Counted from the first letter of the stretch, positions 9,093-62,576 are shown. The stretch is DNA of 64,000 nt from an uncultured Lichenihabitans sp. (GCA_964244255.1 CAXTIC010000016.1:7695-71694); one strand, 5' to 3'. Notes: generated by a model not told the origin, from the sequence alone. Translations and numbers: made by a program.

Positions 9093-9102
9093 GGAGATCG
9101 CG

Positions 9103-9192
9103 ATGATATTCGATTACGTTATCGGCGGGCTCGTGACCATCGGCCTGCTCGTCTACCTCACCTACGCCCTCGTCCGCCCAGAGCGGTTCTGA
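9103..9192 (+). CDS. kdpF: K+-transporting ATPase subunit F
   Basis: 29-aa [29 protein letters not shown] with the canonical YL.YAL.RPE.F ending. A GAGGAG SD precedes it and it lies immediately upstream of kdpA. Confidence 0.85.
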
Positions 9193-9202
9193 AAGTTTCG
9201 CC

Positions 9203-10918: not shown

Positions 10919-11004
10919 CCCGGCCGTTTCCCGCCGTTGCTTCGGAGTGAGCGCCGCCGGCGCTCACTGATCCCGTCCTCTCCCGTTCGTATTCGGAGCC
11001 AGAC

Positions 11005-31149: not shown

Positions 31150-31225
<76 letters not shown>

Positions 31226-43212: not shown

Positions 43213-43242
43213 ATAACACCTCTTTTGGCCGAATCTGGGCGG

Positions 43243-44217: not shown

Positions 44218-44444
44218 ACCAACCGAAGGTTCCAAGCGCAATGCGAAACGCCGGGCAGGTTGCACATTATTGCGGCAATGCGGCTTTTTCTTATCTTTTT
44301 GTAAACGAATCTTGTTCACGCGCTAGGAGAAGGGCCACGCGCCCGGCGGCGGAACGCGCCGGCTTTGCGCGAGCGGTTCGCCCCGCGGAGCCGCCGGGAC
44401 TTGACAGCGTGGGGCGAAGCCGCCCGCGCACCGGGACCGCGGCG

Positions 44445-46472
44445 CTAGCGCTGGGGGGAGGGGAGCTGCCCGATCCGCGACACTTCCCGCTCCGCCGCCT
44501 CGATGCGGGCCAGCACGGGCGCGGTCTTCGCGGTATCCCGCCGGGCCGCCGCCTCGCCCCAGAAGCGCGAACGGCCGAGGTCGCGACCGACGACGAGACC
44601 TTCGCGGTAGAACTCCGCGAGCGTCAGTTGCGCCTCGATCATGCCCTGCTCGCCTGCCTTCTCGTACCAATGCAACGCCGCCGGCGTATTCTGCTCGGCA
44701 CCTTGGCCCTTGAACAGCATCACGGCCAGGTTGAACTGCGCCACCATGTGGCCGGCCCGCGCCGCCCGCTCGTACCAGGCGATGGCGGTGCCCAGGTCCT
44801 TCGGGACGCCCTGCCCCAAACAGTGCATGACGGCGAGCTGGAACTGCGCCGCCGGATAGTCCGCCTCGGCCGCCTTCCGGAACCAGGCGGCGGCCGCGAC
44901 GGGATCGGCCGACGAGACCCGGCCCTCGAGGAGGAGACCGCCCATGATCATCGTGGCCTCGAGGTCGCCGGCCTCGGCGGCGACCCGATACCATTGCACC
45001 GCGAGCCCCTTGTTCTCGTCGGAGGGATCGCGCTTGAGGTAGATCTGGCCGAGCTGCTTGAGGGCCGGCGCGTAGCCGGTCTCGGCGGCCTGGCGCAGCA
45101 ATTCCTCGGAGCGCGTCGGATCGTGGTCGGTGCCGTGGCCGGAGAGATGCAACATCGCGAGCGTCGTCTTCGCCTCGGCGTCGCCCGCGTCCGCCGCGCT
45201 TTGCAGCAAGCCTTGGGCCTTGGCGAGGTCCACGGGTATGCCGCGGCCCGCGAGAGCCATCAGCCCGAGCTTGGACTGGGCCGCCGCGATGCCTTGCTCG
45301 GCCGCCTTGTCGAACCAACGCGCCGCTGCCGCGAAATCCTGCGCGGCCCCGATCCCGTCGTGGTAGAACACCGCGATGTTGAACGCCGCCGTCGCGTGCC
45401 CCTGCTCGGCCGCGCGCAGGAACCATTTGGCGGCCTCCCGCATCACACGCGGCACGCCCTCGCCCCGCGCGTGCAGCGTTCCCAGCATGAACTGCGCCCG
45501 CGCATCGCCGGCTTCGGCGGCACGGCGGTACCATGCCGCGGCCTCGTTGAGGTTCGGGGCCACGCCCTGCCCGCGGCCGTAGAATTCCGCCAGGCTGACG
45601 ATGGCCGGGAGGTGGCCGGCCTTCGCGGCCGCGCGGAGGCGCGTTTCCACCACCAAAGGGTCCTTGGTCAGCCCCGCGGCACCCCGCCCATGCATCAGGG
45701 CGAGCTGGTGGAGGGCCGCCGCGACCTTGTTGCCTTCGGCCGCTTCCTCGAGAAGCCGGGCTGCCTCGATCTCGCCCTCGGCGCCGCGTCCGAGCAGGAT
45801 CATGGCGATCTCGTATTTGGCGACGGGCTCCCCCTGATCGGCCGCCCTGCGGTACCATCGTTCGGCGACGAGGGCGTCCCGCGGAACGCCGAGGCCGTAA
45901 TTGTGGATGGCGCCGAGCCCGAGTTCGGCGCGCGCGACGCCCCGTTCCGCCGATTTCTCGTACCAGGACCGCGCGCTAGCGGGATCCCGCTCACAGCCGA
46001 CGCCCTGGATGAAGAACTGCCCCAGCATCGCCATGGCGCCGCCATGCCCGTTGCGCGCGGCGGCCACCGCCCAATGATGGGCGCGCGACATGTCCTTGGC
46101 GACGCTCACGCCGGCCGGAAACAGCAACAAGCGGTTTCGTTCCGCCGCGTCGGGGTTTTCTTCGGTCGCGGCGGCGTACCACCGCGCCGTCGGGGTCATC
46201 AGGTGCTCGTCGCCGGTGAGATAGAGCAGGCACAACTGGTATTGAGCTTCGGTGTGGCCGAGCGCGGCCGCCTTCTCGAACCAGCTCACCGCCTGCGGCA
46301 TGTTGTAGACGACGCCCTGCCCGCGCAGGTAGAGTTCGCCGAGTTTGAACTGCGCCTCGGCGTCGTCGAATAGGCTCGCGCGCTTCCAAAGGCGGTAGGC
46401 CTTGCCGAAGTCCTCCAAAGCGAAGGCTACGTTGCCGCGCTCGCGCAGGGCGACTTTTTTCCGTCCGAACAT
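44445..46472 (-). CDS. Sel1-like repeat (SLR/TPR-family) protein
   Basis: 675 aa with about 16 units of the pattern A.......G.G...D...A..W(Y/F)..AA..G. There is no signal peptide or TM segment. Confidence 0.9.
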   Translation of the reverse strand: MFGRKKVALRERGNVAFALEDFGKAYRLWKRASLFDDAEAQFKLGELYLRGQGVVYNMPQAVSWFEKAAALGHTEAQYQLCLLYLTGDEHLMTPTARWYAAATEENPDAAERNRLLLFPAGVSVAKDMSRAHHWAVAAARNGHGGAMAMLGQFFIQGVGCERDPASARSWYEKSAERGVARAELGLGAIHNYGLGVPRDALVAERWYRRAADQGEPVAKYEIAMILLGRGAEGEIEAARLLEEAAEGNKVAAALHQLALMHGRGAAGLTKDPLVVETRLRAAAKAGHLPAIVSLAEFYGRGQGVAPNLNEAAAWYRRAAEAGDARAQFMLGTLHARGEGVPRVMREAAKWFLRAAEQGHATAAFNIAVFYHDGIGAAQDFAAAARWFDKAAEQGIAAAQSKLGLMALAGRGIPVDLAKAQGLLQSAADAGDAEAKTTLAMLHLSGHGTDHDPTRSEELLRQAAETGYAPALKQLGQIYLKRDPSDENKGLAVQWYRVAAEAGDLEATMIMGGLLLEGRVSSADPVAAAAWFRKAAEADYPAAQFQLAVMHCLGQGVPKDLGTAIAWYERAARAGHMVAQFNLAVMLFKGQGAEQNTPAALHWYEKAGEQGMIEAQLTLAEFYREGLVVGRDLGRSRFWGEAAARRDTAKTAPVLARIEAAEREVSRIGQLPSPQR

Positions 46473-46509
46473 GACGGGTGGGTGCTCCGAAATGGCGATG
46501 CGGGACCGC

Positions 46510-47880
46510 TCACCGCTCCCGCATGGACTCGCCGACCGCGCCGATGGCGCCCCCTATCACGTATGAGAAGAGGGACCGCGTTCCGACGTTGACGTCGGCG
46601 TGGAGCGTCATGCCCGGGATCAGGCGGAAGTGCTCGGGGACGCCGGTGAAATGGAACGCGTCGATCTTGACCCGCGCCTTGTAATAGGCCTCGACGGGCT
46701 TGCCGTCATCGGAGGTCGTGAACGAGCCTTCGCTGATCCATCGCAGCGTGCCTTCCGCCATGCCGTGCTCGGTCGAATTGAAGGCATCGATCTTGATCAG
46801 GCAATGATCGCCGGGACGCACGAACCCGATGTCGCTCGACCTCAGATGCACCTCGGCCTCCATCGGCGCGCGGGTCGGGACGAGCGTCATCAGTTCGTCC
46901 CCCGCCTTCAGCACCGACCCGACCGACAGTTTCGACATGCTCAGTACCACCGACGGCTCGGGCGCGACGAGCCGCACCAGGTCCTGGTGCTTGGTGGCCT
47001 TCTTGAGACTGCCCACCGCCGCGTCGCGTTCGTTCTCAGCCTTGACGAGGTCTTGGCTGCTTTGCGTGAACCATTGCTGGACGAACGCCTCCTTGTCGGC
47101 CGAAATCGACGACAATTGATGCTGCGACTCGATCAGGCTGTTGTGTCCGTTCTCCATCGTGCGCAGCATTTCGAGCCGGGCGTCATTGGCCTGAAGCAGG
47201 TTGAGCAGGCTGCTCGACCCGCTCTTGTAAAGCGTGTCGCGCATGTTCTCGATCTGATGCGAGATTTTCTCGCGCGCCTCGTAGCGTTCGGCGTCGGCCC
47301 GCAGCTTGGCGAGGGTGGCCTCCGTCGTTTTCATCTTTTCGTCGAAGCTGCGAAGCTGCGCCGCGAACTCGCTCGCGCGCTGATCGAACAGGGCCTTCTG
47401 CAGGCCGATGTAGGGAACCTCCTCGACCGGCACGTCGCCCGGAAACACGAGCGGGACCTTGTTCTGCTCGGCCTTGAGCCGCGTGATCTGCGCGTCGAGC
47501 CCGGCGATCTGCCGCGTGAGCTGCCCCACGTCGGCGGCCGCGAAGGTCGAGTCGAGGGTCGCCAGGAGCTGACCCTTGTCGACCTGCTGCCCTTCCTTGA
47601 CGTCGATGCTCTTGATGATCGACGGATCGAGCGCCTGGAACGTGCTGACCGATTCGGTCGACACGACCTTGCCTTGCTGACTGCCGACCATGCGGTCCAC
47701 CCGCACGAACGGCGTCATCGCGATGAGGGAGAAGAACAACCCAGCGAGCAGGATCACCGCCCATTGGGCGGTGGCGGGCTCGGGTGCTTCCCGGATGGCG
47801 TCGGACTCCGACTGCCATTGCCGGATGGTCTGGAGCGCGTTGGCGGAGCTAGGCGACACTCTGGGAACCTCGGTAGGCAA
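46510..47880 (-). CDS. HlyD-family type I secretion membrane fusion protein
   Basis: 456 aa with one N-terminal TM helix (WAVILLAGLFFSLIAMTPFV), long coiled-coil segments and a C-terminal beta-barrel motif (PGMTLHADVNVGTRSLFSY). Confidence 0.92.
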   Translation of the reverse strand: MPTEVPRVSPSSANALQTIRQWQSESDAIREAPEPATAQWAVILLAGLFFSLIAMTPFVRVDRMVGSQQGKVVSTESVSTFQALDPSIIKSIDVKEGQQVDKGQLLATLDSTFAAADVGQLTRQIAGLDAQITRLKAEQNKVPLVFPGDVPVEEVPYIGLQKALFDQRASEFAAQLRSFDEKMKTTEATLAKLRADAERYEAREKISHQIENMRDTLYKSGSSSLLNLLQANDARLEMLRTMENGHNSLIESQHQLSSISADKEAFVQQWFTQSSQDLVKAENERDAAVGSLKKATKHQDLVRLVAPEPSVVLSMSKLSVGSVLKAGDELMTLVPTRAPMEAEVHLRSSDIGFVRPGDHCLIKIDAFNSTEHGMAEGTLRWISEGSFTTSDDGKPVEAYYKARVKIDAFHFTGVPEHFRLIPGMTLHADVNVGTRSLFSYVIGGAIGAVGESMRER

Positions 47881-50089
47881 GTTTCGGGCGCGCGGGCTGG
47901 CTCGTCGTCATGTGCTGATTCTGCTGATGCCACAACCCGCTGTAGATGTCGCAACGCTCCAGCAGTTCCTCGTGCTTGCCGATATCGTGGACCTCGCCCT
48001 GATCGAGCACAAGGATCGCGTCGGCGTTCACGAGCGACGACAAGCGGTGTGAGATGACGATCATCGTGCGCCCGGCCGCGATCCGCTGCAGGTTGGCGTT
48101 GACGATCGCCTCGCTTTCCGCGTCGAGCGCGCTGGTGGCCTCGTCGAGGATCAGGATGCGCGGGTTGGTGATCAGTGCGCGCGCGATGGCGAGCCGCTGA
48201 CGCTGGCCGCCCGACAGGTTCGGCGACCCCTCGTAGATGAACGTTTCGTAGCCGCGCGGCAGCTTATCGATGAACTCCTCGGCTCCGGCCAGCCGGGCGG
48301 CGAAAACCATCTCCTCGAACGAGGCGTCGCTCTTGGCCGCCGTGATGTTCTCTCGAATCGTGCCGCTGAACAGGAAGTTTTCCTGGAGCACCACCCCGAG
48401 GCTCGACCTGAGATAGTCGATATCGTATTCGCGCACGTCGATCCCGTCGACCTTGATCAGCCCCTGGTAATCAGAATGCAAGCGCTGCAACAGCCGCGTC
48501 ACGGTCGTCTTTCCCGAACCGCTGCGGCCCATGACGCCCAGTGTCGTCCCTTTCGGGATCTCGAACGTGACCGAACGCAACGCCGGCTGCAGAGCGCCTT
48601 TATACTTGAATCGCACCTTGGAGAATTCGACATAACCGTTGACGGGCTTGCGCACACCATGCCCGGTCCGCCCTTCTTCGGGCGGCAGGTTGACGAGGCT
48701 CGCCACGACGCCGACCGCCAACCGCGCTTCGTCGATCTGCTGCAACATGTGCGACATCTGGATCAATGGTGCCGATATTCGTTGAGTCAAAAGAATAAAT
48801 ACAAACAATGTTCCAACATAGATAGGGTCGTTGCTGGTGATCGCGAAGTACACGCCCAACCCGTAGGTGCCACTCACCATCAAGCGTTCGAGCGGCGCCA
48901 CCACGGTCTGCAGAACGTTGCTGACTTTCGACGCTTCCATCTGAGCGAGCGCGACGCGTGAGGTGAGCACGTCCCATTCATGGCGCTGCTTGGAATCGAG
49001 TGCCAGGGACTTGATCGTTCGGATGCCGTGGATGTTCTGCGACAGGAACGCCCCCCGATTCGCTTCCGCGGTCTCGACCTTGCTCGACCGTACCCTGTAG
49101 ATCGGAAGCATGATCGCGATCCACCCGAAGATCAGAGCGCACATCACCAGCACGAATGTCGTAAGTACCAAACTTAAGTAAAACATCACAGGCAGAAAAA
49201 ACAGCAATACGCCGCTGTCCAGCACAGTACCAAACAATTGCCCCATGAGGAACGAGCGAATGCGGCTGAGCTGGCCCATCTTATACGTGATAAGACCAAC
49301 GGGCGTGCTTTCGAAAAAGTCCACGGGCAGATTGAGCACCTTGTCGAACATGTAGGTCGACAGCTTGATGTCCATGCGCGTCGTGAGGCGCGACAACAGG
49401 AAGCGGCGCAGGGCACCGAACGCCGTCTCGAAGGAGATCAGGATCAGCATTCCGAGACAAAGCACCACGAAGGTGTTTATGGCGTGAGTCGGAAGCACGC
49501 GTTCCGCCAACAAGCGCATGAACATGATCGGCGCCAGGGCCAGCAGGCTCATGCTCAGAGCGCTGATCGCGATGCCGCGCGCGAGCCGCCGCTCGCGCAC
49601 GATCAAACCCAGGATGAAGGCAGGACCGAACGGCTGGTCCTCGTCCGAGACTGCGTAGTCGCGCTGGATCAACACGATCTCGCCGGTCCAAACCTCGGCG
49701 AGCTGGTTATGATCGAGCACCAGGAGCGCGTCGGGGTCGGCGCTCGGGTCCTGCAGGACGACCCGCGGCAGGTTGTGGTCCACCTCGGTGCGCAACAGCA
49801 CCATGCAGGAGCCGTTCTTGAAGCGTATGATCGCCGGCAGCGCCTTCTTGAGTTGCGCCAGGCCGTTGACGTCAAGCCGGAGCGCCCTGCCCTTGAGGCC
49901 GGCCCCTTCGGCGCAGCGCAGCAGTTGCGCCGTCGTCACCTCGTCCCCGGACAAGCGGTTGTCGCGAACCAGTTGCGAGGCGCTCAGGTGAAACCCATGC
50001 CGCCGGGCGATGACGACCAGGCATTGCAGGCCGGACGGTGCGGCGTCGTCGGTCGACGCACCGGCTTGCACCAAGGTCGAACTCTTCAT
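47849..50089 (-). CDS. type I secretion ABC transporter (HlyB-like) with an N-terminal C39-like domain
   Basis: Trimmed to ATG 50089 (MKSSTLVQ). A ~130-aa C39-like domain comes first, and in my by-eye alignment the catalytic Cys position reads Ser (PSGLQC versus DCG). A six-helix TMD follows. The NBD has Walker A GRSGSGKTT, signature LSGGQRQR and Walker B ILILDEATS. There is a 32-nt overlap with hlyD. Confidence 0.92.
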   Translation of the reverse strand: MKSSTLVQAGASTDDAAPSGLQCLVVIARRHGFHLSASQLVRDNRLSGDEVTTAQLLRCAEGAGLKGRALRLDVNGLAQLKKALPAIIRFKNGSCMVLLRTEVDHNLPRVVLQDPSADPDALLVLDHNQLAEVWTGEIVLIQRDYAVSDEDQPFGPAFILGLIVRERRLARGIAISALSMSLLALAPIMFMRLLAERVLPTHAINTFVVLCLGMLILISFETAFGALRRFLLSRLTTRMDIKLSTYMFDKVLNLPVDFFESTPVGLITYKMGQLSRIRSFLMGQLFGTVLDSGVLLFFLPVMFYLSLVLTTFVLVMCALIFGWIAIMLPIYRVRSSKVETAEANRGAFLSQNIHGIRTIKSLALDSKQRHEWDVLTSRVALAQMEASKVSNVLQTVVAPLERLMVSGTYGLGVYFAITSNDPIYVGTLFVFILLTQRISAPLIQMSHMLQQIDEARLAVGVVASLVNLPPEEGRTGHGVRKPVNGYVEFSKVRFKYKGALQPALRSVTFEIPKGTTLGVMGRSGSGKTTVTRLLQRLHSDYQGLIKVDGIDVREYDIDYLRSSLGVVLQENFLFSGTIRENITAAKSDASFEEMVFAARLAGAEEFIDKLPRGYETFIYEGSPNLSGGQRQRLAIARALITNPRILILDEATSALDAESEAIVNANLQRIAAGRTMIVISHRLSSLVNADAILVLDQGEVHDIGKHEELLERCDIYSGLWHQQNQHMTTSQPARPKLAYRGSQSVA

Positions 50090-50411
50090 CCCGTTTTCCC
50101 GGCCCCGCAAAGCTCACCGGCGGGCATCGGAGCGCCGGATCGCCAGGGCGTGATACCGCAAAAGCGGCTTTTTCGCAAGCTTGGCAATAGGGTGTTCTAA
50201 GGCGCACGTGGTTTCGTAAATGACGAAGCCCGTCCATCGCCGCGCACGGAAGTATCCACGGATCATTGTAAAAGACTTACCTCAATGCGGAAATCCGCGC
50301 ATCGGCGGCGGCGTCCGGCGGGTTGCGATTCGCCCCCGGCCGCGCTAGCGACGCACGGGGCGTGAGCCGGCCCGCGGCCGGCCGCGAATACTTACGCGGG
50401 ACGGCCAAGCG

Positions 50412-50894
50412 ATGGCGGGACACGACAGCGACGTTCGCCCGCTCACGATTTTCGTCGATGCCGATGCCTGTCCGGTCAAGGCCGAGGTGTATCGGGTCGC
50501 CGAGCGTCACGCCTGCCGTGTGTTCGTCGTGGCAAACAGCGTGCTGGCCGTGCCGCGCGCACCCTTCATCGAGCGGGTGCTCGTGCCCGGGGACCCCGAC
50601 GCGGCCGACGATTGGATCGCCGCGCACGTCCACGCGGGCGACATCGTGATCAGCGCGGACATTCCCTTGGCGAGCCGTTGCGTGAAGGCCGGCGCCGTCG
50701 TTCTCGCGCCCGATGGCCGCCCGTTCACCGCCTCTTCGGTCGGCATGGCGCTGGCCACGCGCAATTTGATGGACCAGCTGCGCGAGGCCGGGGAAACGAC
50801 GCGCGGACCGAAGCCCTTCGCGCCGCGGGACAGATCCGCGTTCTTGGGCGCGCTCGACCGCGAGATCGTGCGCTCGCGCCGGCGCGCCCGGTGA
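50412..50894 (+). CDS. YaiI/YqxD (UPF0178, DUF188) family protein
   Basis: 160 aa. [11 protein letters not shown]...VVANS...DAADDWI...[12 protein letters not shown] is the family pattern. Confidence 0.85.
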
Positions 50895-50920
50895 GCGGGG
50901 CGGGGCCACCGGGCGGAGCC

Positions 50921-51889
50921 TCAGTCCCCGCACACCATTTGGAACAGCGCCGTCCGCAGCGGCGGCCCGTAGTCCGACTGCCGGAAATAGGCGGCCTGCG
51001 GCAGCGGGTCGACGTCGGGCGCGATCTCGTTGTTGCGCGGCAGCGGGTGCAGGACGCGCGCTTCGGGGCGCAGGCGGCGGGCGGTCGCACCGTCGAGCAC
51101 GAAGCGGTCCTTCACGCGGTCGAACAGGCCCTCGTCCGTGAACCATTCCTTCTGCGGGCGCGTCATGTAGACCACGTCCACCTTCGGGAGGAGGTCGTCC
51201 CAGTCGACGGTTTCCGTGAAGGGCACGCCGCGGCCGGCCAGATAGGCCTTGATGTCGTCGCGCACGCGCAGTTCCGGCACGGACACGAAGTGCAGCCGCG
51301 TGCCCGGGTATTGCGCGATCAGGTAGGCGAGCGAGCGCACGGTGCGGCTGAAGCGGCAATCGCCCACGAAGGCGATCTCGACCCCCTCGACGCGGCCCAC
51401 CTCGCGCTCGATCGTGTAAAGGTCGAGCGCGGCCTGGGTCGGATGCTGCTCGGCGCCGCAGCCGGCGTTGAACACCGGCACCGGAAAGCCGGCGCGCGCC
51501 ATGCCGTGCGACACGAGCGCGGCGGCGTCGTCGCGCGGGTGCCGCAACACGAGCGCGCGGGGGCCGTAGCCCGCGACCACGCGGGCGGTGTCCTCCAGGA
51601 CCTCGCCCTTGGCGGCGGATGAGAAGCGCCCCGCGTCCTCCGTGTAGATAACGTCGGCGCCGAGGCGCATCGCCGCCAGCTGGAACGACATGCGGGTTCG
51701 CGTGCTGGGCTGGTAGAACAGCATCACCACCACCCGGCCCCGAAAGATGCGCTCGGGCGCCCCGGTAAGCAGCCGGGTCGTCCGTTCGGCCAGTTCGGCG
51801 AACACGTCGGGGGTGAACTGTTGGGCCTCCAGGATCGAGCGCCCCCTGAGCGGCGCCGCGGCGCACCGCGCCGTCGCGCGCCCGGTCAC
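50921..51889 (-). CDS. pyrB: aspartate carbamoyltransferase-like catalytic chain
   Basis: GTG 51889 (GTGA overlap with the upstream stop). It has the carbamoyl-phosphate motif FYQPSTRTRMSF, SSAAKGEVLEDT, HPTQ, GDCRFSRTVRS, MTRPQKEWF and VLHPLPR. Confidence 0.85.
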   Translation of the reverse strand: MTGRATARCAAAPLRGRSILEAQQFTPDVFAELAERTTRLLTGAPERIFRGRVVVMLFYQPSTRTRMSFQLAAMRLGADVIYTEDAGRFSSAAKGEVLEDTARVVAGYGPRALVLRHPRDDAAALVSHGMARAGFPVPVFNAGCGAEQHPTQAALDLYTIEREVGRVEGVEIAFVGDCRFSRTVRSLAYLIAQYPGTRLHFVSVPELRVRDDIKAYLAGRGVPFTETVDWDDLLPKVDVVYMTRPQKEWFTDEGLFDRVKDRFVLDGATARRLRPEARVLHPLPRNNEIAPDVDPLPQAAYFRQSDYGPPLRTALFQMVCGD

Positions 51890-52650
51890 GATGCCGCCCG
51901 CATGGCCCGTGCCAGCCGCGGCCAATCGCGTTTCGGCGACCACGCGACGTTGTTCGCCGCGACGTCGTCGGCGACGCACGGATCCGATTGGTCGTACTGC
52001 CCGAAAACATGCCGAACGACGGACACGACCGGCAGGTCGAGCCCGGGCCGCGGCACGTACGCGGTGTCCACGAGGGCCGACCGGTTGAGGATGCACAGGA
52101 CGCCGGCCACGCGCGCCCCCCGTGCCTCGATCAGCGCGACGAGTTGGGCCGTCGTGCTGAAATTGTTGCACACGTCCTCGACGATGAACCAGCTCTGCCC
52201 CGGCGCGGGCTCGTGCCGGTCGAACACGAGTTCGGTCGCCTCGCGTGACGCCGCGCCCGCCGCCGCGACGATCCTTTTCTCCGGGTAGATGTAGTCGCGC
52301 CCGGCATCGAGCGCGAGCTGGTAGGCGAAGGCCTTGCCGCCTTCGGGCGCCCCGCAATACCCGGCCGCCGCGTCGAGCGTCGGGCCGAGGTGCCGGCCGC
52401 GCATGGCGTCGGAGAGGCGACGCGAGAAGGCGCGCAGCAAGCTGGGGTGCCGCTCCGCCCGTGCCACGTTGACGTAAACCTCGCCCACGTACTGGCGGCC
52501 GTCCGCGTCGCGGCCGGCGTAGCCGACGAGCGGACCGAGACGCTTCCCCGCCGCGTCCTTCGGGGTTTCGTAGAAGGCCCCGCACGCCTTCAGCCAGTCG
52601 AGCGGAGCGTCGCGATCGGCGCCGTCGCCGATCCGTTCCCAAGGCCGCAT
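51886..52650 (-). CDS. type I phosphoribosyltransferase (orotate PRTase-like)
   Basis: Trimmed to ATG 52650 (MRPWERIG). It has the PRPP-binding loop SWFIVEDVCNNFSTTAQL and lies between pyrF and the ATCase-like gene. Confidence 0.75.
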   Translation of the reverse strand: MRPWERIGDGADRDAPLDWLKACGAFYETPKDAAGKRLGPLVGYAGRDADGRQYVGEVYVNVARAERHPSLLRAFSRRLSDAMRGRHLGPTLDAAAGYCGAPEGGKAFAYQLALDAGRDYIYPEKRIVAAAGAASREATELVFDRHEPAPGQSWFIVEDVCNNFSTTAQLVALIEARGARVAGVLCILNRSALVDTAYVPRPGLDLPVVSVVRHVFGQYDQSDPCVADDVAANNVAWSPKRDWPRLARAMRAAS

Positions 52651-52660
52651 GGACGAGCCC

Positions 52661-53509
52661 CTACCTGTAGGCGTTGACGGCGTCGCCGAGCCGCCGCGTT
52701 TCGGCGCGGGCCGCGGACGCGAAGTCCTCGCCCGACGACGCGTAAAGGATGGCACGGGACGCCGCGATGATCATGCCGCGCCCCCGCGCGTCGCGCCCCG
52801 CCGCGACCGTGGCGCGCAGGTCGCCGCCCTGGGCGCCGATGCCCGGGATCAGCAGCGGCATGTCGCCGGCCAGCGCGCGCACGCGGGCGAGTTCGCCCGG
52901 CACCGTCGCTCCGACGACGAGGCCGCAATTGTCGTTGCCGTTCCAGCCGGCGGCGACCGTGCGCGCCACGGCCTCGTAGAGCCGCTCCGGGCCGGCGCCG
53001 ACGGCGAGATCCTGGAACTCGCCGCCCCCCGGGTTCGAGGTTCGGCACAGCACGAAGACGCCCTTGTCGCGCCGCGCGAGGAACGGAGCCAGCGCGGCGC
53101 CGCCGAAATAGGGCTGGACCGTGACGGCGTCGGCGCCGAGATCGTCGAAGGCGTGCCGGACGTAGCCTTCGTTGGTCGAGCCGATGTCGCCGCGCTTGGC
53201 GTCGTAGATGACGGGGATGTCGGGGCCGATCTCCCGGACGCGGGCCATCAGGCGGGCGAGGACCGCCGCGCCCGCCGCGCCGAGCGCTTCGAAGAAGGCC
53301 GCGTTGGGCTTGAACGCGCAGGCGAGGTCATGGGTGGCCTCGACGATCGCCGAACAGAAGTCCAGGACGGACTCGGCCCGCGCCTCGGCGCCGTCCCCGG
53401 CCTTGAGGTGCCGCGGCAGCCGCTCCCAATCGGGATCGAGGCCGACGCAGAGGAAGCGCCCCATGTCCCAGCGCGCCTCGACGAGGTCACGGAAGACGGG
53501 GCGCGTCAT
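52661..53509 (-). CDS. pyrF: orotidine 5'-phosphate decarboxylase (long, type 2 form)
   Basis: 282 aa with LCVGLDP, FKPNAAFFE, IYDAKRGDIGST and VTVQPYFG motifs. Confidence 0.9.
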   Translation of the reverse strand: MTRPVFRDLVEARWDMGRFLCVGLDPDWERLPRHLKAGDGAEARAESVLDFCSAIVEATHDLACAFKPNAAFFEALGAAGAAVLARLMARVREIGPDIPVIYDAKRGDIGSTNEGYVRHAFDDLGADAVTVQPYFGGAALAPFLARRDKGVFVLCRTSNPGGGEFQDLAVGAGPERLYEAVARTVAAGWNGNDNCGLVVGATVPGELARVRALAGDMPLLIPGIGAQGGDLRATVAAGRDARGRGMIIAASRAILYASSGEDFASAARAETRRLGDAVNAYR

Positions 53510-53525
53510 GCGGGAACGCCACGGG

Positions 53526-54611
53526 TCATGGCAGCACCCGCCAGGCGAGCACCTCGCCCGCCATCATCGGCACGAGGCCGTCTCCGAGGGCCGGGACGGC
53601 GACCTCCTCGGGCACCCGCCAAGGCTCCCGCACGAGCGTCACGGTCCCGGCATTCAGGGGGAAGCCGTAGAACCGCGCCCCGTGCTCGGCCACGAACGGT
53701 TCGAGCTTGTCGAGGGCGTCATGCTCGGCGAAGAACGCCGCGAGCAGCGGCAGCGCCGCCAGGGTGTTCCAAACCCCGCAGGCCGAGGCCGCCGCCTCCT
53801 TGTCGCGCTTGAGGTGGGCCGCGTCGTCGCCTCCGTAGTAGAAGCGCGGGTGGCCGGACAGCAGCGCCTCATGCAGCGCGGCGCGATCGGCCCGACGCTT
53901 CGGCTGCGGCTTGCACCCGCAATGGACCCGCATGAGGCCGCGGCTCGCGGAACTGTAGCCCAGCACGTCGTCGAGCGTGGTGAGGAGGTGGTGCACCGTG
54001 ACGCTGGCGCCGACGGTCTCGCCCTGCGCCGCCACCCAGTCGACGGCCGCCCGGCTCGTGATGTGTTCGAGGCTGACGCGAAGGCGCGGAAACCGGCGGA
54101 TCACGTCGTCGAGGATGTCGAGGAACGCCGCCTCCTTGTCGAGCCCCTCGACGGCCTCGTCCGGGTGCTCGCCGTGGAACTGCACCACCATGCCGCAGGC
54201 CTCGGCCGAGGCGAGCGCCGGCGCGATCTTCGCATAGTCGCGCACGCCGTTGCCCGAATGCGTCGTCACCATGAACGGATAGACCTTGCCGACGCGCACG
54301 CCGAGGTCGGCCGCCTCGCGAACCGTACCGGCCGTCGTCGCCTCGGTGATCTGGATCGTCGGCACGGGGTCGAGGGTCGTGACCGGATCGACCGCGCGGG
54401 CGCGGGCCAGGATGCGGTCGCGGTAGCCGAGCGCGTCACGGCCCGTCAGCACGGCCGGGACGATGTTGGGCTCGGCCAAGATGCGCGCGCGCCATCCCGC
54501 CCGGATGAACACGGGCACGAGCGCGTCGAGCAGGGCGCCGTCCCGGAAATGGGCGTGCCAATTGTCGGGCGTCCGGATCGCGAGACGCCGGGGCTCCCCG
54601 TCGTTTCTCAC
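53526..54611 (-). CDS. pyrC: dihydroorotase-like amidohydrolase (homodimeric PyrC type)
   Basis: GTG 54611 (GTGA overlap with the upstream stop). It has the metal ligands PDNWHAHFRDG, a carboxylated-Lys context VGKVYP, and FHGE, LEHITS and GGDDAAH. Confidence 0.85.
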   Translation of the reverse strand: MRNDGEPRRLAIRTPDNWHAHFRDGALLDALVPVFIRAGWRARILAEPNIVPAVLTGRDALGYRDRILARARAVDPVTTLDPVPTIQITEATTAGTVREAADLGVRVGKVYPFMVTTHSGNGVRDYAKIAPALASAEACGMVVQFHGEHPDEAVEGLDKEAAFLDILDDVIRRFPRLRVSLEHITSRAAVDWVAAQGETVGASVTVHHLLTTLDDVLGYSSASRGLMRVHCGCKPQPKRRADRAALHEALLSGHPRFYYGGDDAAHLKRDKEAAASACGVWNTLAALPLLAAFFAEHDALDKLEPFVAEHGARFYGFPLNAGTVTLVREPWRVPEEVAVPALGDGLVPMMAGEVLAWRVLP

Positions 54612-55531
54612 GCGGCCCGGCTTTCGGGCGCGGGCGCGGTCCCGAGGGCACGCGCGCCGACCCGCTCCCGCACGTCGCGCCGCGCGATGGCGGTCGGCGC
54701 CCAGGGGGTGCGCAGGTGGATGGCGCCGTAGCTCACCGCCTCGGCCCCGAAGGCGCGCACGCGGGCGAGGTCGTCGAACGCCATGATGGAGGGCGCGATC
54801 ACCGGCAGCGTCCGGTCGGCCGCGACAGCCGAGGCCGCCCGCCAGTTCGCGGCTTGCGCGGGCTTTCCCGATACCCCGCCGCCGCCGCCCCCGACCGCGC
54901 TCTCGAGGCGCCACAACGGGCTGCGGCGACCGGGGAACACCCGCTCCCACGGCACGCTGTTGAAGGCCACCGCTTCCGCCGTGCCGACGAGGGCACGCGC
55001 GATGGCCCGGCAGTCCTGCGCGGCCGAAAGTTTCACGATCAGCGGGTGGCGGGACGCGGCCTTCACGGCGCGGAGCGCGCCGACGACCGCCTCCGTTTCG
55101 GGCAGCCCGTGGCCGGCGTTGGGGCAGGACGGGTTCACTTCGAGGCCGACGAGGGCGAACGGTTCGAGCAGGCGCGCCATGGCGACGAGGTCGTCGTCTG
55201 CGCCGAAAATAGAAGCGACGACCGGCACGCGAGGGGTGTCGAGCCCGGGTCCGACCTCACGGCACCACCAGTCGATCCCCGGATTGGTGAGCCCGACCTT
55301 GTTGACCGCGCCGCCCGGCAGAAGGCGCACGCAGCCCCATGGGGCGTGCCAGCGCAGGTTGCCGCGGCGGGGATGGCGGGTCAGCGTCTTCAGCACGACG
55401 GTGAACAGATCCGGCCGGATCAGCCGCGCCGCCACCATCGGCCGTTCCCACGGCCAGCCCCGCCCGTCGAAGGCGAGCGACCCGCTGGCGACGACGTGGT
55501 CGAGGACGTGGCCGTTCGATAAGGCGATCAT
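54608..55531 (-). CDS. pyrD: dihydroorotate dehydrogenase family flavoenzyme (soluble class 1-like, Cys base)
   Basis: 307 aa with no N-terminal membrane helix. It has KTLT...GN, VNKVGLTNPG, EVNPSCPN (catalytic Cys context) and a GGGGVSGKP FMN-phosphate loop. Confidence 0.8.
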   Translation of the reverse strand: MIALSNGHVLDHVVASGSLAFDGRGWPWERPMVAARLIRPDLFTVVLKTLTRHPRRGNLRWHAPWGCVRLLPGGAVNKVGLTNPGIDWWCREVGPGLDTPRVPVVASIFGADDDLVAMARLLEPFALVGLEVNPSCPNAGHGLPETEAVVGALRAVKAASRHPLIVKLSAAQDCRAIARALVGTAEAVAFNSVPWERVFPGRRSPLWRLESAVGGGGGGVSGKPAQAANWRAASAVAADRTLPVIAPSIMAFDDLARVRAFGAEAVSYGAIHLRTPWAPTAIARRDVRERVGARALGTAPAPESRAA

Positions 55532-55656
55532 GGCAGGTCCGGGGATTGCGCGCGAGCGGGCTCGGTATAACCCTCCCCGGGCCGCTTGGGAATGCGCCGT
55601 CGGGCTTCCGCCACGGGTCGGTCCGGTACGCGGCTTAGGCTCCAGACTCAGTCATA

Positions 55657-56914
55657 GTACATCGTTTCCATGGATCGACTCCTATAACGTCGCCTCGGCG
55701 ATTTTGTATGTGCAGTGATGGATGAGCGGGTCGCGGTCGATGTCTTCGAGGTAGGCGAGGATGCGGGCTTTGAGTTCGGCTTTGGATGCCACTCGGATGT
55801 GACGGAGCATCGAGCGCGCCATCCTGGAGAAGAAGCCCTCGACGAGGTTGAGCCAGGAGCCGTGCTGGGGGTGAACACGAAGGAGAACCGGCCCTCGGGC
55901 TGGCTTTCGATCCATGCCTTGGTCTCCTTGGAGAGGTGCGCCGAGTGGTTGTCGAGGATCGCCTCGATGGCGGTCTCGGCCGGGTAGGCGGCATCGGGCT
56001 TCTTGAGGAAGCCGACAAATTCGCGCGACCGGTGGCGGTCCTCGACGCTGGCATGCACTTGACCGGTCAGCAGGTCGATCCCGGCCAGCAGGCTCAGCGT
56101 GCCATGGCGCTTGTATTCGTGGTCGCGTGCGAACGCCGCGGGCGACCCTGGTCGCGGCGGCAGATCGGGTGCGGTGTTGCCGATCGCCTGGATGCCGGGC
56201 TTCTCGTCATACGAGATGATGGCACCAGGGGGGTCCGGCTGCTCACTCTCGCGCAGCAGGGCGACCTCGCGATAAACGCACAGCACGTCGGCCATCTTCG
56301 CCTCGAACGCCTCGTCGCGCCGTTCGAGACAGTGGCGCACCTTGTGCGGCTTGACCTCCTGGCGCGCGAGTATCTTGCAGACCGTGCCCTGCACGATGGT
56401 CGCCAGGCACGGATGCCCGGCCGCCTGCGCGTGCTCCCGCGCGTGACGCGCCAGCAGGCGCGTCGTCCACAATTCGTGTGGATACCCCAGGTCTTTCGCT
56501 TTCTGGCACGCGAGCGACACCAGCCAGGCGCGCGCCTCCGGCGTGATCACAGGCGCCTTCCCGGGTCGCGGGCTGTCGTCGAGGGCCGCCATGACGCCCA
56601 GCTGTTCGGCACGACGCACGCATCGCCGAACCGTGTGGCGCGTCACCCCGATCTGCTCGCCCACCGCAACGGAAGACGGATTGGCATGATAGGCCAGAAG
56701 CATGCGCGCCCGCTCAACCCGGACTGCCGCCTCGGTGCGCGATCGAGCGATCGCCTCCAATCGGGCCAACTCATCCGACCCGATCGAAAACTCCACAACC
56801 CGCCGGGGTGCCGCCATCATGCCCATCCGCCACATTGACCCCCAGACCGCTTACAACACGCCCCCCGACCAAGGGAATCCCATTTCGCGGATCACCTCCA
56901 TGGAATCGATGTAC
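55657..56914. mobile_element. IS630-family insertion sequence (about 1.26 kb) with TA target-site duplication
   Basis: The terminal inverted repeats are GTACATCGTTTCCATGGA (55657-55674) and TCCATGGAATCGATGTAC (56897-56914), matching at 17/18 positions. Each is flanked by TA (55655-55656 and 56915-56916). Confidence 0.8.
55682..56835 (-). pseudogene. IS630-family DDE transposase, frameshifted near the C-terminus
   Basis: ORF 55648..56835 carries the HTH and DDE regions (YDEKPGIQA...LDNHSAH). The conserved end HGSWLNLVEGFFSRMAR...KAELKARI lies in another frame (ORF 55682..55915). The shift is at a C5 run near 55868-55872 (ttcaccccc/agcacggc). Confidence 0.8.
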
Positions 56915-56980
56915 TAGCATCGCCGCATCGAGCGGGTCGATGTCCGGCGAACCCGGTGACGCGCCGACCCGGACCCTCCC

Positions 56981-57766
56981 ATGCCCCGTTTCGCCGCCAA
57001 CCTGTCGATGATGTTCACCGAATGGCCGTTCCTCGACCGCTTCGCCGCGGCCGCGGACGCGGGCTTCGAGGCGGTCGAGTTCCTGTTCCCCTACGAACAC
57101 GCGGCCGAGGCGATCGGCGCGCGGCTCGCCGCGCACCGGCTGGAACAGGCGCTGTTCAACCTGCCGCCGGGCGACTGGGACGCGGGCGAGCGCGGCATCG
57201 CGGCCCTGCCCGGCCGCCGCGACGCGTTGGCGCGCTCCGTCGAGACCGCGCTGCGCTACGCCGAGGCGACCGGCGCCCGCGCGCTGCACCTCATGGCCGG
57301 CATCGCGCCGGCCGACGATCCGGCCCACCAGGCGGCTTACGCGGCCGCGCTCGATCTCGCGTGCGGACGGGCGGGACCCGCGGGCGTCGCCATCGTGATC
57401 GAACCGATCAACCGGCGCGACATGCCGGGCTATTTCCTGAACGACTTCGACCGCGCCGCGGCCCTCATCCGCCAACTCGGGCTGCCGAACCTCAAGCTGC
57501 AGTTCGATATCTACCACCGTCAGATCCTGCACGGCGACGTGACGCGCGGGCTCGAAGCGGCGCTGGACGTGATCGGCCACGTGCAGGTCGCCTCGGTACC
57601 AAAGCGCAACGAGCCCGGCACGGGCGAACTCGACGACGCGCGCGTGTTCGCCTCGCTCGACCGGATCGGCTACGACGGTTTCGTCGGCTGCGAATACCGT
57701 CCCGCCGGCGCGACGCTCGAGGGCCTCGGCTGGTTCGCGCCCTACCGCAGGGCGCGGACCGGCTGA
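56981..57766 (+). CDS. hyi: hydroxypyruvate isomerase family (Hyi/OtnI-like) TIM-barrel protein
   Basis: 261 aa. MPRFAANLSMMFTEWPFLDRFAAAADAGFEAVEFLFPY plus IEPIN and QFDIYH motifs. Confidence 0.9.
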   Translation: MPRFAANLSMMFTEWPFLDRFAAAADAGFEAVEFLFPYEHAAEAIGARLAAHRLEQALFNLPPGDWDAGERGIAALPGRRDALARSVETALRYAEATGARALHLMAGIAPADDPAHQAAYAAALDLACGRAGPAGVAIVIEPINRRDMPGYFLNDFDRAAALIRQLGLPNLKLQFDIYHRQILHGDVTRGLEAALDVIGHVQVASVPKRNEPGTGELDDARVFASLDRIGYDGFVGCEYRPAGATLEGLGWFAPYRRARTG

Positions 57767-57788
57767 TGCGGACGACGCGTCGCGACCC

Positions 57789-58751
57789 TCACAGCCCGAG
57801 GCTGGCGCGGACGGGTCGAGGCCAGTCGCGCGCCTCGATGCCGTGCGTCGCGAACAGCGCCACCGCGAGACGGTCCATGCCGAAGGCCACGCAGCCCGTG
57901 TGGACGCGGGCGCCGGCCGCGTCGCGCAGGTCCCACGCCTCGCCGAAATGATCGCGGTGGTTGTTGAAACTCATGCAGGCGGTGGGCGCGTCGGCGGAGC
58001 GGACCGGCACCAGGAGCTCGAATTTCAGCGCGTCGCGGACCTGCATCGCGGCCATCATCTGCCCCGTGCGGCCGAAGAACGGGTCGCTGGCCTGCTCGAC
58101 CGTGTGGGGCAGGCCGAGGGCGTCCGCCATGCCCCCGGCGCGACCGAGCCAGCGCGCGCGGAACGCCGCGACGTCCTCCGGCGCACCGATGCTTACGAAC
58201 TCCCGCATGCGGAAGGATTGGAACCGGTCGATGTCGCGCGATGGTTCGCGGCGGAAACAATCACTGGCGATGTCGAAAGCGAGGCCGCCCTCCGGGACCG
58301 GCCCTCTCCCGGCCACGATCGGGTACACGGGGTAGCATGCCGCCGGCGTCAGCACGAGGTCGCTCGATCGCAGCGACGCGGTCCAGTCGCCGCCGGCGTC
58401 GTGGCGCCCCACCGCGGCGCGGATGTCGTCCTCGGTACCGGCGAGCGCGCACACGCAGCCGAGGAGGTTGGGGAAACTCTTGAGGTAGCCCGAGCGCTCG
58501 AGCGTCCGGCGGCTCATCACCGGGGGGAAGCGCAGCACCTCCGTACCGTGCTCGCGGTGGCGCGTGATGAAGGCCGCGAGGCTGTCCACGACGGCCTCAT
58601 AGGCGCCGGTGCGTCCATACACGCCGTCGACCCCCGTCGGGTGGAACAGCGCCTCGATGGCGGCCGCCCCCAGCGGATGGCGGTCGTCGGTCGCGTCTCG
58701 CGCCCGCACGGGTGCGTTCATCGCCAAGGCTCCCAGATGTAATCGCGACAC
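57789..58751 (-). CDS. amino acid--[acyl-carrier-protein] ligase (truncated class II, methanogen-type SerRS homologue)
   Basis: 320 aa. It has a class II aaRS catalytic core without a tRNA-binding arm (RFPPVMS.. LERSGYLKSFP, FRMREFV, GMDRL). The candidate Zn triad is Cys139/Glu184/Cys287 (TPAACYP, REF, HTGCVAF). It starts 4 nt after the ACAD-like stop. Confidence 0.75.
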   Translation of the reverse strand: MSRLHLGALAMNAPVRARDATDDRHPLGAAAIEALFHPTGVDGVYGRTGAYEAVVDSLAAFITRHREHGTEVLRFPPVMSRRTLERSGYLKSFPNLLGCVCALAGTEDDIRAAVGRHDAGGDWTASLRSSDLVLTPAACYPVYPIVAGRGPVPEGGLAFDIASDCFRREPSRDIDRFQSFRMREFVSIGAPEDVAAFRARWLGRAGGMADALGLPHTVEQASDPFFGRTGQMMAAMQVRDALKFELLVPVRSADAPTACMSFNNHRDHFGEAWDLRDAAGARVHTGCVAFGMDRLAVALFATHGIEARDWPRPVRASLGL

Positions 58752-58755
58752 ACCT

Positions 58756-59988
58756 TCAGTCCACCAGCGAGTCCGGCACGCCGGCCATCAGCGCCGACAG
58801 GCCGAGGCTCGCCAGGATCCGGTCGTTGTTGATCATCAGCGGCGAGGACAGGACATCGCGCAGCAGCCGCCCCATGCTGGCCTCGCCGTCGTTGCGGTAG
58901 CCCGACAGCCCGCACGCCCGCAGGCAGGCGAGGACGGTGGCGACCGCCAGTTCCGAGCTCTCGACCTTGAGCAGCGTCATGTTGGTCTGGAACTCCAACG
59001 AGCCGAGCGCGGCCTCGTCACCGAGCGCCCGCTCGTAGCGCCGCGCCGCCGCCGCCACGAGGTCGCGCAACGACCGCAGCGAGGCCTGCGCCCGGGTCAG
59101 GTGGGACGCGCCGGGCGGCAATTGCCCCTTGTTGCGCCGGGCCGCGACCCGGGTGAAGGCCTGAGCGCGGGCGACGGCCGCGGCGGCGATGCCGGCCCAG
59201 GCGCCGGACCAGAACACGTGGGCGCTCGGCGTCATGGTGTGCGCGTGGATCTTGTCGTAGGGCACGGGCAGGATCTGCGCGCGCTCCGCATCCGCCGTGA
59301 GCTTGAAGCCCGTGCTGCAGGTGCCGCGCATGCCGAGCGTGTCCCAGCTTTGCCCGCGCTCGAGCGTGTAATCGCCGCGCAGGAGAACCACCAGGACCTG
59401 GTCCGAATGCGCGGCGTCGGCCTCGCGGCGGGCGGTCGTGACGATGCCGTCCGCTTCCGCGCCGTAGGAGATGACGGTCGCGTCGCGGTCGAGCGTGATG
59501 CGATGGCCCGCGTGACCGACGGCCGCGTCGCTCGCGCGGACGTTGCCGCCGTTGTGGCCTTCCGTCGTCGAGGACGCGAGCAGCCATTGCTCGGCGCAGA
59601 GCCGACGCAGCATGCGGGCGTGCCACGCGCTGTCGACGCCGTGGCGGCAGACGCAGGCAACCTTGATCTGATGCATCGCGAAGATCATCGCGGTGGCCGA
59701 ACACGCACGCCCCAGCCGATAGCATACGTCGGCCACCTCCGAAGGGCCGGCGCCCTCTCCGCCGAGGTCGCGCGGCACCGCGAGGCCCATGAGGCGCTTG
59801 TCTTTGAGGAGGGCGACCGCTTCCCGTGGAAAGCGCGCCTCGCGGTCCACCGCGTCGGCGTGGGCGGCGGCGACGCTTGCGACCGCATCGGCGCGGACCC
59901 GGACGCCCTCGACGGCGACTTGCGGCGGCGACGGCGCGACGCGGTCGGTCGCGAACGCCTGCCTGCTTCGAACCTCGACGCTCGCCAT
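58756..59988 (-). CDS. acyl-CoA dehydrogenase-family flavoprotein
   Basis: 410 aa with the three-domain ACAD pattern (..LMGLAVPRDLGGEG.., SSTTEGHNGGNV, DTLGMRGTCSTGF, C-terminal helical domain). Confidence 0.85.
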   Translation of the reverse strand: MASVEVRSRQAFATDRVAPSPPQVAVEGVRVRADAVASVAAAHADAVDREARFPREAVALLKDKRLMGLAVPRDLGGEGAGPSEVADVCYRLGRACSATAMIFAMHQIKVACVCRHGVDSAWHARMLRRLCAEQWLLASSTTEGHNGGNVRASDAAVGHAGHRITLDRDATVISYGAEADGIVTTARREADAAHSDQVLVVLLRGDYTLERGQSWDTLGMRGTCSTGFKLTADAERAQILPVPYDKIHAHTMTPSAHVFWSGAWAGIAAAAVARAQAFTRVAARRNKGQLPPGASHLTRAQASLRSLRDLVAAAARRYERALGDEAALGSLEFQTNMTLLKVESSELAVATVLACLRACGLSGYRNDGEASMGRLLRDVLSSPLMINNDRILASLGLSALMAGVPDSLVD

Positions 59989-60054
59989 ACTATGCCCCCG
60001 TTCGCCTCACCGTCCCGGCTTTCCTTTGAAATACGGTGAACCCCGTCGTCTGCG

Positions 60055-60185
60055 AGGAATGAAAGTCGATAAAGGTAAATTTACAATGCGAGTAATTCAT
60101 AGTTAATTATGTGTTAAATCATAGACAGAAACATCACTGTCGTCCATTAAGGTGAATGTCTGAAATTATCACTAAAACGTTGCAT
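60055..60185. promoter_or_regulatory. strongly AT-rich divergent control region with direct repeats AAWTCATAG spaced 22 bp apart
   Basis: ...gaaagtcgataaaggtaaatttacaatgcgagtAATTCATAGttaattatgtgttAAATCATAGacagaaac... It lies between the ACAD-like gene (minus) and the ACP gene (plus) and contrasts sharply with the GC-rich flanks. Confidence 0.4.
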
Positions 60186-60268
60186 TGCCGGAGCGGTCGC
60201 GCGAAGGAAACGTAGCAATCGGACCTGCGAACCATGCTGCGCGGGGCCGCCTTACCGCAGGTCCTTCG

Positions 60269-60553
60269 ATGCCGCAAAACCCCGACCCACGCCGCCTGGA
60301 CAAGGTCACGACCCTCGTCACCGGCATCCTCGCGAAATACCCGTCGTCCGGCCGGGTCGACCCCGATGGCGACCTCGCGCGTGTCGGCATGTCCTCGATC
60401 GACATGGTCGAGCTGATGCTCGCCGTCGAAGCCGAATTCGACCTCACCATTCCGCCCGGGGACATCACGCTCGCCAACTTCAGCTCCATCCGGTCCGTTG
60501 AGGCGCTCGTGGGACGGCTGCGACCGCGCGCGGAGGATGCGGCGGCGGCCTGA
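60269..60553 (+). CDS. acyl/peptidyl carrier protein
   Basis: ORF 60185..60553 trimmed to ATG 60269. It is 94 aa. The phosphopantetheine-attachment context is LARVGMSSIDMVELMLAVEAEF. Confidence 0.8.
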   Translation: MPQNPDPRRLDKVTTLVTGILAKYPSSGRVDPDGDLARVGMSSIDMVELMLAVEAEFDLTIPPGDITLANFSSIRSVEALVGRLRPRAEDAAAA

Positions 60554-60576
60554 CCGCGCTGAAAGTCCCGCCCGCC

Positions 60577-62548: not shown

Positions 62549-62576
62549 GTGACGGCTTGGCTGTTTCGAGGGGACG

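Follow-up and report, generated by a model that had tools for sequence, protein, structure and literature searches.

Why an alphaproteobacterium should carry, in five consecutive genes, what looks like a complete route from aspartate to a pyrimidine nucleotide is the question raised by a locus in an uncultured Lichenihabitans sp. (GCA_964244255.1, CAXTIC010000016.1:7695-71694). The stretch that was analyzed is 64,000 nt long and is called the window below; positions are counted from its first letter. At 50921-55531 its minus strand encodes, in transcription order, a dihydroorotate dehydrogenase (DHOD)-like protein, a dihydroorotase (DHOase), an orotidine 5'-monophosphate (OMP) decarboxylase (ODCase), a divergent phosphoribosyltransferase (PRTase) resembling orotate phosphoribosyltransferase (OPRT), and an aspartate carbamoyltransferase (ATCase). 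An initial annotation had placed the operon in an accessory context flanked by insertion sequences (IS) and suggested either a horizontally acquired second uridine monophosphate (UMP) route or a pathway repurposed for a non-canonical pyrimidine. The reading that we favor, with a probability of roughly 70%, is that the five genes form a functional, translationally coupled module leading from carbamoyl phosphate and L-aspartate to UMP, that this module is of non-alphaproteobacterial descent, and that an ancestor of the Lichenihabitantaceae took it up as an operon. It is built on sequence and model comparisons, from which we infer what the enzymes act on, where the DHOD passes its electrons, and in which direction the module was transferred.

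Each of the five ORFs is intact and free of internal stops. The DHOD-like gene (54608-55531, minus strand as are the other four, 307 aa, ATG start) matches PF01180 at 54.5 bits. It is followed by the DHOase gene (53526-54611, 361 aa, GTG start), which scores 261 bits against TIGR00856 (cut-off 293), and by the ODCase gene (52661-53509, 282 aa) with 243 bits against TIGR02127 (cut-off 111). The PRTase gene (51886-52650, 254 aa) is without any Pfam hit and reaches 28 bits against TIGR01367, the pyrE_Therm profile (cut-off 150). The last gene, for ATCase (50921-51889, 322 aa, GTG start), contains PF02729 and PF00185 and scores 258 bits against TIGR00670 (cut-off 237). For DHOase and ATCase the GTG start is a deduced one, and the database call for ATCase is 340 aa. 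In two places the stop codon of one gene and the start of the next overlap in a GTGA sequence (DHOD stop and DHOase GTG at 54608-54611; PRTase stop and ATCase GTG at 51886-51889), and the two remaining junctions are gaps of 16 nt and 10 nt. The gene order, overlaps, gaps, and every motif quoted in the initial annotation were thus borne out by the ORF and motif check. So was the lack of companion genes: window ORFs and domain annotation revealed no pyrK, pyrR, pyrI, or carAB within or beside the operon, and an Rfam scan found no RNA element, PyrR site included. The GC content of the operon is ~73% and its GC at third codon positions (GC3) is 0.86-0.93, the same as in the remaining window and hence host-like.

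Three of the enzymes, ATCase, DHOase, and ODCase, look canonical. The DHOase carries HAH19, K109 (KVYP), HGE146, EHIT182, and DAAH263; in the PDB it matches a Burkholderia enzyme (4LFY, E 2e-67) and the E. coli enzyme (1J79, E 5e-55). Its metal ligands (HxH, the carboxylated Lys, His139, His177, and Asp250) together with Arg20, Asn44, and His254 all align with 4LFY, and the protein is predicted to be a type II DHOase of the homodimeric E. coli/Burkholderia type. The ODCase has DAKRGDIGST at residue 103 and with it the D-K-x-x-D motif; its profile score is at equivalog level, and among PDB entries it is closest to the ODCase domain of Leishmania UMP synthase (3QW3, E 2e-57), consistent with a long-form (subfamily 2, 'sub2') OMP decarboxylase. 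In the ATCase we observed STRTR62, HPTQ149, RPQ244, and HPLP281. The top PDB matches are Arabidopsis PYRB (6YPO, E 9e-72) and M. jannaschii 2RGW, and E. coli PyrB was matched too. STRTR, the K84 equivalent, HPTQ, the Arg of SRTVRS, RPQ, and HPLP all align with Arabidopsis PYRB. At the positions that could be aligned, the residues for carbamoyl phosphate and for the aspartate carboxylates are retained (Arg167, Arg229, Gln231), and the enzyme appears suited to aspartate.

The PRTase is far more divergent. Its phosphoribosyl pyrophosphate (PRPP) motif is IVEDVCNNFSTT, with the acidic pair present, and its PRPP loop reads NNFSTT; canonical OPRTs have a T-A-G-T-type PRPP loop. The protein has no Pfam match (PF00156 included) and no PDB match by sequence, and TIGR01367 is matched weakly by 36 of the 37 PRTase family members. 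The AlphaFold2 (AF2) model, with a pLDDT of 93.6, has a type I PRT fold. Nearest to it are the folds of H. pylori HP1257 (4PAW, TMt 0.76) and A. pernix OPRT (2YZK), with adenine phosphoribosyltransferases scoring almost as high. The gene adjoins the ODCase gene in 24 of 80 metagenome loci and does so also in genomes belonging to the Candidate Phyla Radiation (CPR). From the modeled fold, the weak profile matches, and the ODCase adjacency, the PRTase is taken to be a putative OPRT. With the Thermus/Helicobacter/Aeropyrum OPRTs (TIGR01367; 2YZK, 4PAW) it shares the type I PRT fold, the acidic pair in the PRPP motif, and the ODCase adjacency, but it is ~60 residues longer through an N-terminal extension, scores 28 bits where the TIGR01367 cut-off is 150, and lacks PF00156. 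The 4PAW structure was itself deposited as a 'hypothetical protein', and a literature search on HP1257 found nothing relevant.

The DHOD-like protein has the motif NPSCPN at residue 133, in which Cys136 would be the catalytic base. Among the NCBIfam profiles it scores 84 bits against class-1B PyrD (PRK07259, cut-off 269) and falls outside class 1A (PRK02506, 22.7 bits against a cut-off of 301), the class 1A structures ranking below DHODB in both sequence and fold searches. It is not a class 2 enzyme by profile (PRK05286, 16 bits, cut-off 433) or by base, which is Cys and not Ser, and the chain begins directly at the barrel with no N-terminal membrane/quinone domain. The top PDB sequence match is the PyrD subunit of L. 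lactis DHODB (1EP1, E 4e-18), and the AF2 model (pLDDT 85) has its top fold match in DHODB (5UE9/1EP1, TM 0.72, 25% identity). K48, N77, N83, N133, C136, N138, K167, and N191 are invariant across the family, and the alignment to DHODB indicates that the orotate/FMN site keeps its conserved Lys and Asn along with the Cys base. The likeness to the L. lactis PyrDB-PyrK heterotetramer (1EP1, 5UE9) thus extends to the TIM barrel, the N-x-S-C-P-N Cys base, and the orotate/FMN Lys and Asn. The window protein differs from it in the ~25% identity, the lack of PyrK, and the presence of extra Trp-rich segments; eight Trp residues are invariant or almost so across the family. No PyrK-like gene (FAD + 2Fe-2S, PF10418) was found in the window operon or in the Pfam-annotated loci L017, L018, L021, L022, L025, and L106, while as a control the same annotation recognized a genuine PyrK-PyrD pair in a Dormibacteraeota locus. 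We regard the protein as a predicted soluble class-1-like DHOD with a Cys base and without a PyrK partner, from a separate subfamily, abundant among Patescibacteria, that comprises at least 150 clusters at 50% identity (E <= 1e-30).

Taken in this way, the five products would complete the pathway. ATCase would form carbamoyl-aspartate, using carbamoyl phosphate supplied by the host carAB; the type II DHOase would cyclize it to dihydroorotate; and the soluble FMN-type DHOD would oxidize dihydroorotate to orotate with Cys136 as the base. Since this DHOD has neither a PyrK subunit nor a quinone-binding N-terminus, its electrons would pass to a soluble acceptor, for which fumarate or O2 may be guessed. 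The divergent OPRT would then couple orotate with PRPP, and the long-form ODCase would yield UMP. The chemistry is almost certainly that of the textbook orotate/UMP pathway and not a new kind of system. The enzymes that would carry it out are unlike the usual alphaproteobacterial set, in support of the initial annotation, with a soluble class-1-like Cys DHOD, a long 'sub2' ODCase, and a highly divergent OPRT.

Next, we examined whether the operon is peculiar to this genome. In the species-representative genome set, the order DHOD-DHOase-ODC-PRT-ATC occurs in all Lichenihabitans and Lichenibacterium loci recovered, with 62-78% identity; both genera are members of the Lichenihabitantaceae. The complete five-gene order is present in 14 Lichenihabitans/Lichenibacterium loci, a 5'-truncated locus (L010) has the final four genes, and L. 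dinghuense also carries the five-gene order. For all five genes and five relative pairs, the ratio of nonsynonymous to synonymous substitution rates (dN/dS) is 0.08-0.41, indicating purifying selection. In a neighbor-joining tree rooted on 1EP1, the window DHOD nests in a 28-sequence family clade, which itself lies among CPR sequences. Apart from the five of the operon, no gene is common to the window and 17 family loci. Flanks are syntenic inside the Lichenibacterium group (GGT ... operon-NDH2-AI2E), different in Lichenihabitans, and different again in the window. Because gene order is shared, selection is purifying, GC3 is host-like, and the DHOD nests in the family clade, the operon is best described as an old trait conserved over the recovered family members and not as cargo of the adjacent IS; its earlier placement in an accessory island is not supported. 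Searches of the literature on Lichenihabitans and pyrimidine found nothing relevant, and the supplements of a lichen-metagenome paper (PMC11542873) contain no pyr KEGG entries.

Outside the family the closest relatives (for DHOD, 89 sequences of other lineages within the 120 best clusters listed) are in named Patescibacteria (CPR), with 58-65% identity for DHOD, 50-58% for OPRT, 52% for DHOase, and 52-58% for ODCase. They include Paceibacterota, Taylor-, Kaiser-, Vogel-, and Staskawiczbacteria, and one Saccharibacteria locus. Together with unclassified metagenomic bacteria, these relatives are in agreement with the foreign ancestry that had been suggested for the operon. CPR genomes share with the window the subfamilies of DHOD, OPRT, ODCase, and DHOase (50-65% identity), their genes lying in adjacent pairs (DHOD-DHOase and ODC-PRT) or in clusters of four. 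They differ from the window, which has all five genes together, in that each CPR locus examined has two to four of them, some of other lineage or as OPRT-ODC fusions, with ATCase elsewhere. The neighbors there are TIM, PGK, RecJ, ThrRS, DnaE, MiaA, TopA, Pth, and GyrA, a housekeeping context in genomes too small for redundancy. A Parcubacterium genome has been reported with a near-complete de novo pyrimidine pathway (PMC5220378), and the CPR loci examined here fit that report. A literature search on Patescibacteria and DHOD found nothing relevant.

Two high-GC loci extend this picture. A 70% GC metagenome contig (L106, positions 7088-11755 of ENA ERZ25039504 contig_149833) has the identical DHOD-DHOase-ODC-PRT-ATC order, at 64, 42, ~52, 54, and 48% identity to the window, respectively, with lptB-rpoN and rsfS-rlmH nearby. 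Apparent frameshifts, probably assembly errors, interrupt both its ODCase and its ATCase. The survey of gene neighborhoods thus found the complete five-gene operon in Lichenihabitantaceae and L106 only, the CPR loci being partial. In the second locus (L058, JAESFL010000021.1, 3077-11127, 65% GC), genes for an RraA-like protein, DHOase, ODC, PRT, ATC, purF, purD, and purN lie on one strand, without DHOD, in a cluster that unites pyrimidine with purine genes. The donor lineage would be one whose surviving relatives are mostly Patescibacteria, with some unclassified high-GC bacteria, and the module would have been inherited vertically after its acquisition. Dormibacteraeota were considered as donor on the basis of a 51% ATCase match and rejected, their ATCase lying in a classical carAB-pyrK-pyrD cluster.

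The most serious competitor to this account is one of xenologous displacement, in which the operon is the sole pyrimidine pathway of the Lichenihabitantaceae, the dispersed canonical pyrB, pyrC, pyrD (class 2), pyrE, and pyrF having been lost after its arrival, so that the arrangement is unusual but housekeeping. Its presence in every recovered family locus and the strong purifying selection agree with such a role, as does the placement of the Lichenihabitans operons amid ordinary chromosomal genes, e.g., rpmB, a SpoU methylase, and transaldolase. The operon also diverges much as its chromosomal neighbors do: between L005 and L017 its identity is 86-93% and that of the flanks 81-91%. Against this stand two Lichenibacterium-like metagenome contigs of distinct species (L027, 4185-9472; L028, 4185-7781) with DHOD-ODC-PRT-ATC, from which the DHOase gene is cleanly gone, the four remaining genes being intact with dN/dS of 0.06-0.22 between the two. 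Because the operon DHOase has been lost and the other four genes are still under selection, these genomes should have another DHOase, unless the gene has moved, and this favors redundancy. It is also more parsimonious to suppose that the five dispersed native genes were kept than that all of them were lost. Displacement is therefore a tentative explanation that we consider unlikely, though deserving of attention, and we lean toward a module that runs parallel to the canonical pyr genes and does not replace them.

Much less probable are the two explanations that would make the locus a specialty of this strain or of its secondary metabolism. A recent, strain-specific acquisition as accessory cargo of the IS630 element or of the secretion island could account for an element with intact inverted repeats 123 bp upstream, for window flanks that have nothing in common with those of relatives, and for the lower GC of the adjacent secretion genes (61-65% at 46-51 kb, ~70% elsewhere in the window). 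However, a single IS only abuts the operon and its transposase is frameshifted, GC and GC3 of the operon match the host, and megablast of 50300-56900 against plasmids gave no match. Identity to the other family loci is ~62-78%, much like that of Lichenihabitans versus Lichenibacterium, and together with the nesting of the DHOD this pattern points to vertical descent with local rearrangement; a recent arrival is accordingly very improbable. Just as hard to credit is the proposal that the pathway was repurposed, either to convert an aspartate or orotate analogue into a non-canonical pyrimidine or a nucleoside natural product, or for self-resistance to a pyrimidine antimetabolite. The strong divergence of DHOD and PRTase, both under curated cut-offs, and the confinement of the operon to one alphaproteobacterial family would suit it, and lichens are rich in secondary metabolites. 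The active sites speak otherwise, since ATCase retains its binding residues for carbamoyl phosphate and for the two carboxylates of aspartate, the active sites of DHOase and ODCase are canonical, and ODCase scores above its equivalog cut-off. No tailoring, glycosyl-transfer, export, resistance, or regulatory gene is conserved beside the operon across the 17 family loci. This divergent pair, DHOD and OPRT, is also found amid housekeeping genes in the tiny genomes of CPR bacteria, and the PRT cluster of L058 lies beside purF-purD-purN. A natural-product role is unsupported because ATCase looks built for aspartate, accessory genes do not co-vary with the operon, and the same enzymes are found in minimal genomes and beside purine genes. 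This part of the initial annotation was not supported.

Some observations do weigh against the five-gene UMP module of foreign descent that we prefer. DHOD and OPRT score far under all curated equivalog cut-offs, and their named relatives are "hypothetical protein" in NCBI records. In the alignment to L. lactis DHODB, the Gly-rich loop G-M-G-G is replaced by (G/A)-P-S-I and the G-T motif by G-A in the DHOD family, in segments that we take to contact the flavin phosphate in DHODB. Because these two motifs are replaced and the Trp residues are invariant, cofactor binding or the redox partner may differ from those of DHODB. The ATCase has no especially close CPR relative, with ~50% identity across Dormibacteraeota, Paceibacterota, and Chloroflexi, and the DHOD tree was made by neighbor-joining without support values.

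Clustered pyr genes are a trait of Firmicutes, and the operon of Bacillus and other Firmicutes (pyrR-P-B-C-AA-AB-K-D-F-E) resembles the window operon in its clustered, coupled genes, in a class-1-type DHOD with a Cys base, and in an ATCase without PyrI. The two also differ: the order in the window is D-C-F-E-B, there is no pyrR attenuator or PyrR site, carAB, pyrK, or permease, the DHOase is type II and not long type I, the ODCase is of the long form, and the OPRT belongs to another subfamily. A cluster with likeness to the Firmicutes type (pur/pyrB-carAB-pyrK-pyrD) was found in Dormibacteraeota.

Upstream of the operon, a leader and candidate promoter region (55532-55654, minus strand) spans the 123 bp between the DHOD start codon and the inverted repeat of an IS630-family element (55655-56916, minus strand, the same orientation as the operon; NF033545, 169 bits). 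Its 20-nt terminal inverted repeats (55655-55674 and 56897-56916) are intact and 95% complementary, so the IS described earlier is real; the flanking is direct on one side of the operon only. The element would have landed at its position later, in this genome. Its transposase (55682-56835, minus strand) is frameshifted near 55870, and the conserved C-terminal sequence HGSWLNLVEGFF... runs on in another frame to a stop at 55682, which could reflect a decayed copy or programmed frameshifting. At 55575-55590 the window has GGGTTATACC, which by eye is similar to the GACCTGTTATCC box located upstream of the operon in the Lichenibacterium loci L004-L007 and L017. Upstream of DHOD in L001-L003, L008, L009, and L015 there is CTGGACCT followed by a CCTAAGA-like box. 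In relatives the operon is preceded, at a distance of ~45-80 nt, by short conserved boxes, of which the window has retained only the TTATnC-like one, situated between the ATG and the end of the IS. These boxes may be promoter elements; a strict sigma-70 consensus and terminator scan gave nothing exceeding shuffled expectation.

On the downstream side, yaiI (50412-50894), convergent to the operon, separates it from type I secretion genes, among them those for a C39-peptidase ABC exporter (47849-50110) and HlyD (46510-47880). The secretion set (42127-50110) also includes one protein of 701 aa, in which there are nine or more Sel1 repeats, and another with RTX repeats. Between the IS630 element and a second IS630-like helix-turn-helix ORF (62553-63389), a cluster at 56981-62142 encodes xylose-isomerase-like TIM-barrel, acyl-CoA dehydrogenase-like, phosphopantetheine carrier, and GINT1_N-like proteins. 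It also encodes a truncated class II aminoacyl-tRNA synthetase-like protein of 320 aa with a weak tRNA-synt_2b match, which resembles amino acid:carrier-protein ligases. The wider window is ordinary chromosome, with pyruvate kinase, kdpA, a kdpB-like P-type ATPase gene, kdpD, aroA-cmk, sugar ABC transport, and glycosyltransferases. Two tRNA-Ala genes are on the minus strand at 413-488 and 31150-31225 (anticodons CGC and GGC).

Individual family loci show further variation. L027 has a 1.8-kb insertion between PRT and ATC that holds a 316-aa ORF without Pfam match, and in L017 a MAPEG gene is inserted at the same junction. Directly downstream of ATCase and on the same strand, L004-L007, L017, L027, and L028 have a type II NADH dehydrogenase (NDH-2)-like gene (Pyr_redox_2 + NDH2_C). 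NDH-2 was rejected as a redox partner of the DHOD, being present in these seven Lichenibacterium-type loci and not in the window, the Lichenihabitans loci, or L106. In two metagenome-assembled genomes the DHOase matches are broken across frames (L011, 10219-10224; L015, 10759-10774). An 885-aa protein (P0376) was considered as a DHOD-DHOase-ODCase fusion and rejected, as pairwise alignment showed frameshifted junk between good segments, i.e., a merged gene call. The DHOase splits and this merger are probably long-read assembly errors and not pseudogenes or fusions.

We concluded that the locus is a pyrimidine operon whose history crosses phyla and whose enzymes come from under-recognized subfamilies. 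Two of them, DHOD and OPRT, come from large subfamilies that are mostly missed by annotation. Pyrimidine prototrophy is perhaps under-called in CPR genomes, because these proteins are annotated as "hypothetical protein" and the OPRT has no Pfam match. The orphan DHOD is the most interesting part of the operon and the one most deserving of experiment; without PyrK and without a quinone domain it poses a concrete question about the electron acceptor. It is possible, although we hold this idea only tentatively, that the DHOD-like protein founds an undescribed DHOD class, stand-alone and class-1-derived, with a remodeled flavin-phosphate site, invariant Trp residues, and an acceptor that is neither PyrK/NAD+ nor quinone. 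If true, this would explain how pyrimidine synthesis is completed in CPR bacteria without quinone and PyrK, and the Lichenihabitantaceae might then have taken up the whole module as a respiration-independent, possibly inhibitor-insensitive, second route to UMP. For the family itself, the locus appears to be a clear instance in which an entire biosynthetic operon is shared by Patescibacteria-like lineages and one free-living or lichen-associated alphaproteobacterial family, and has long been retained in the latter.

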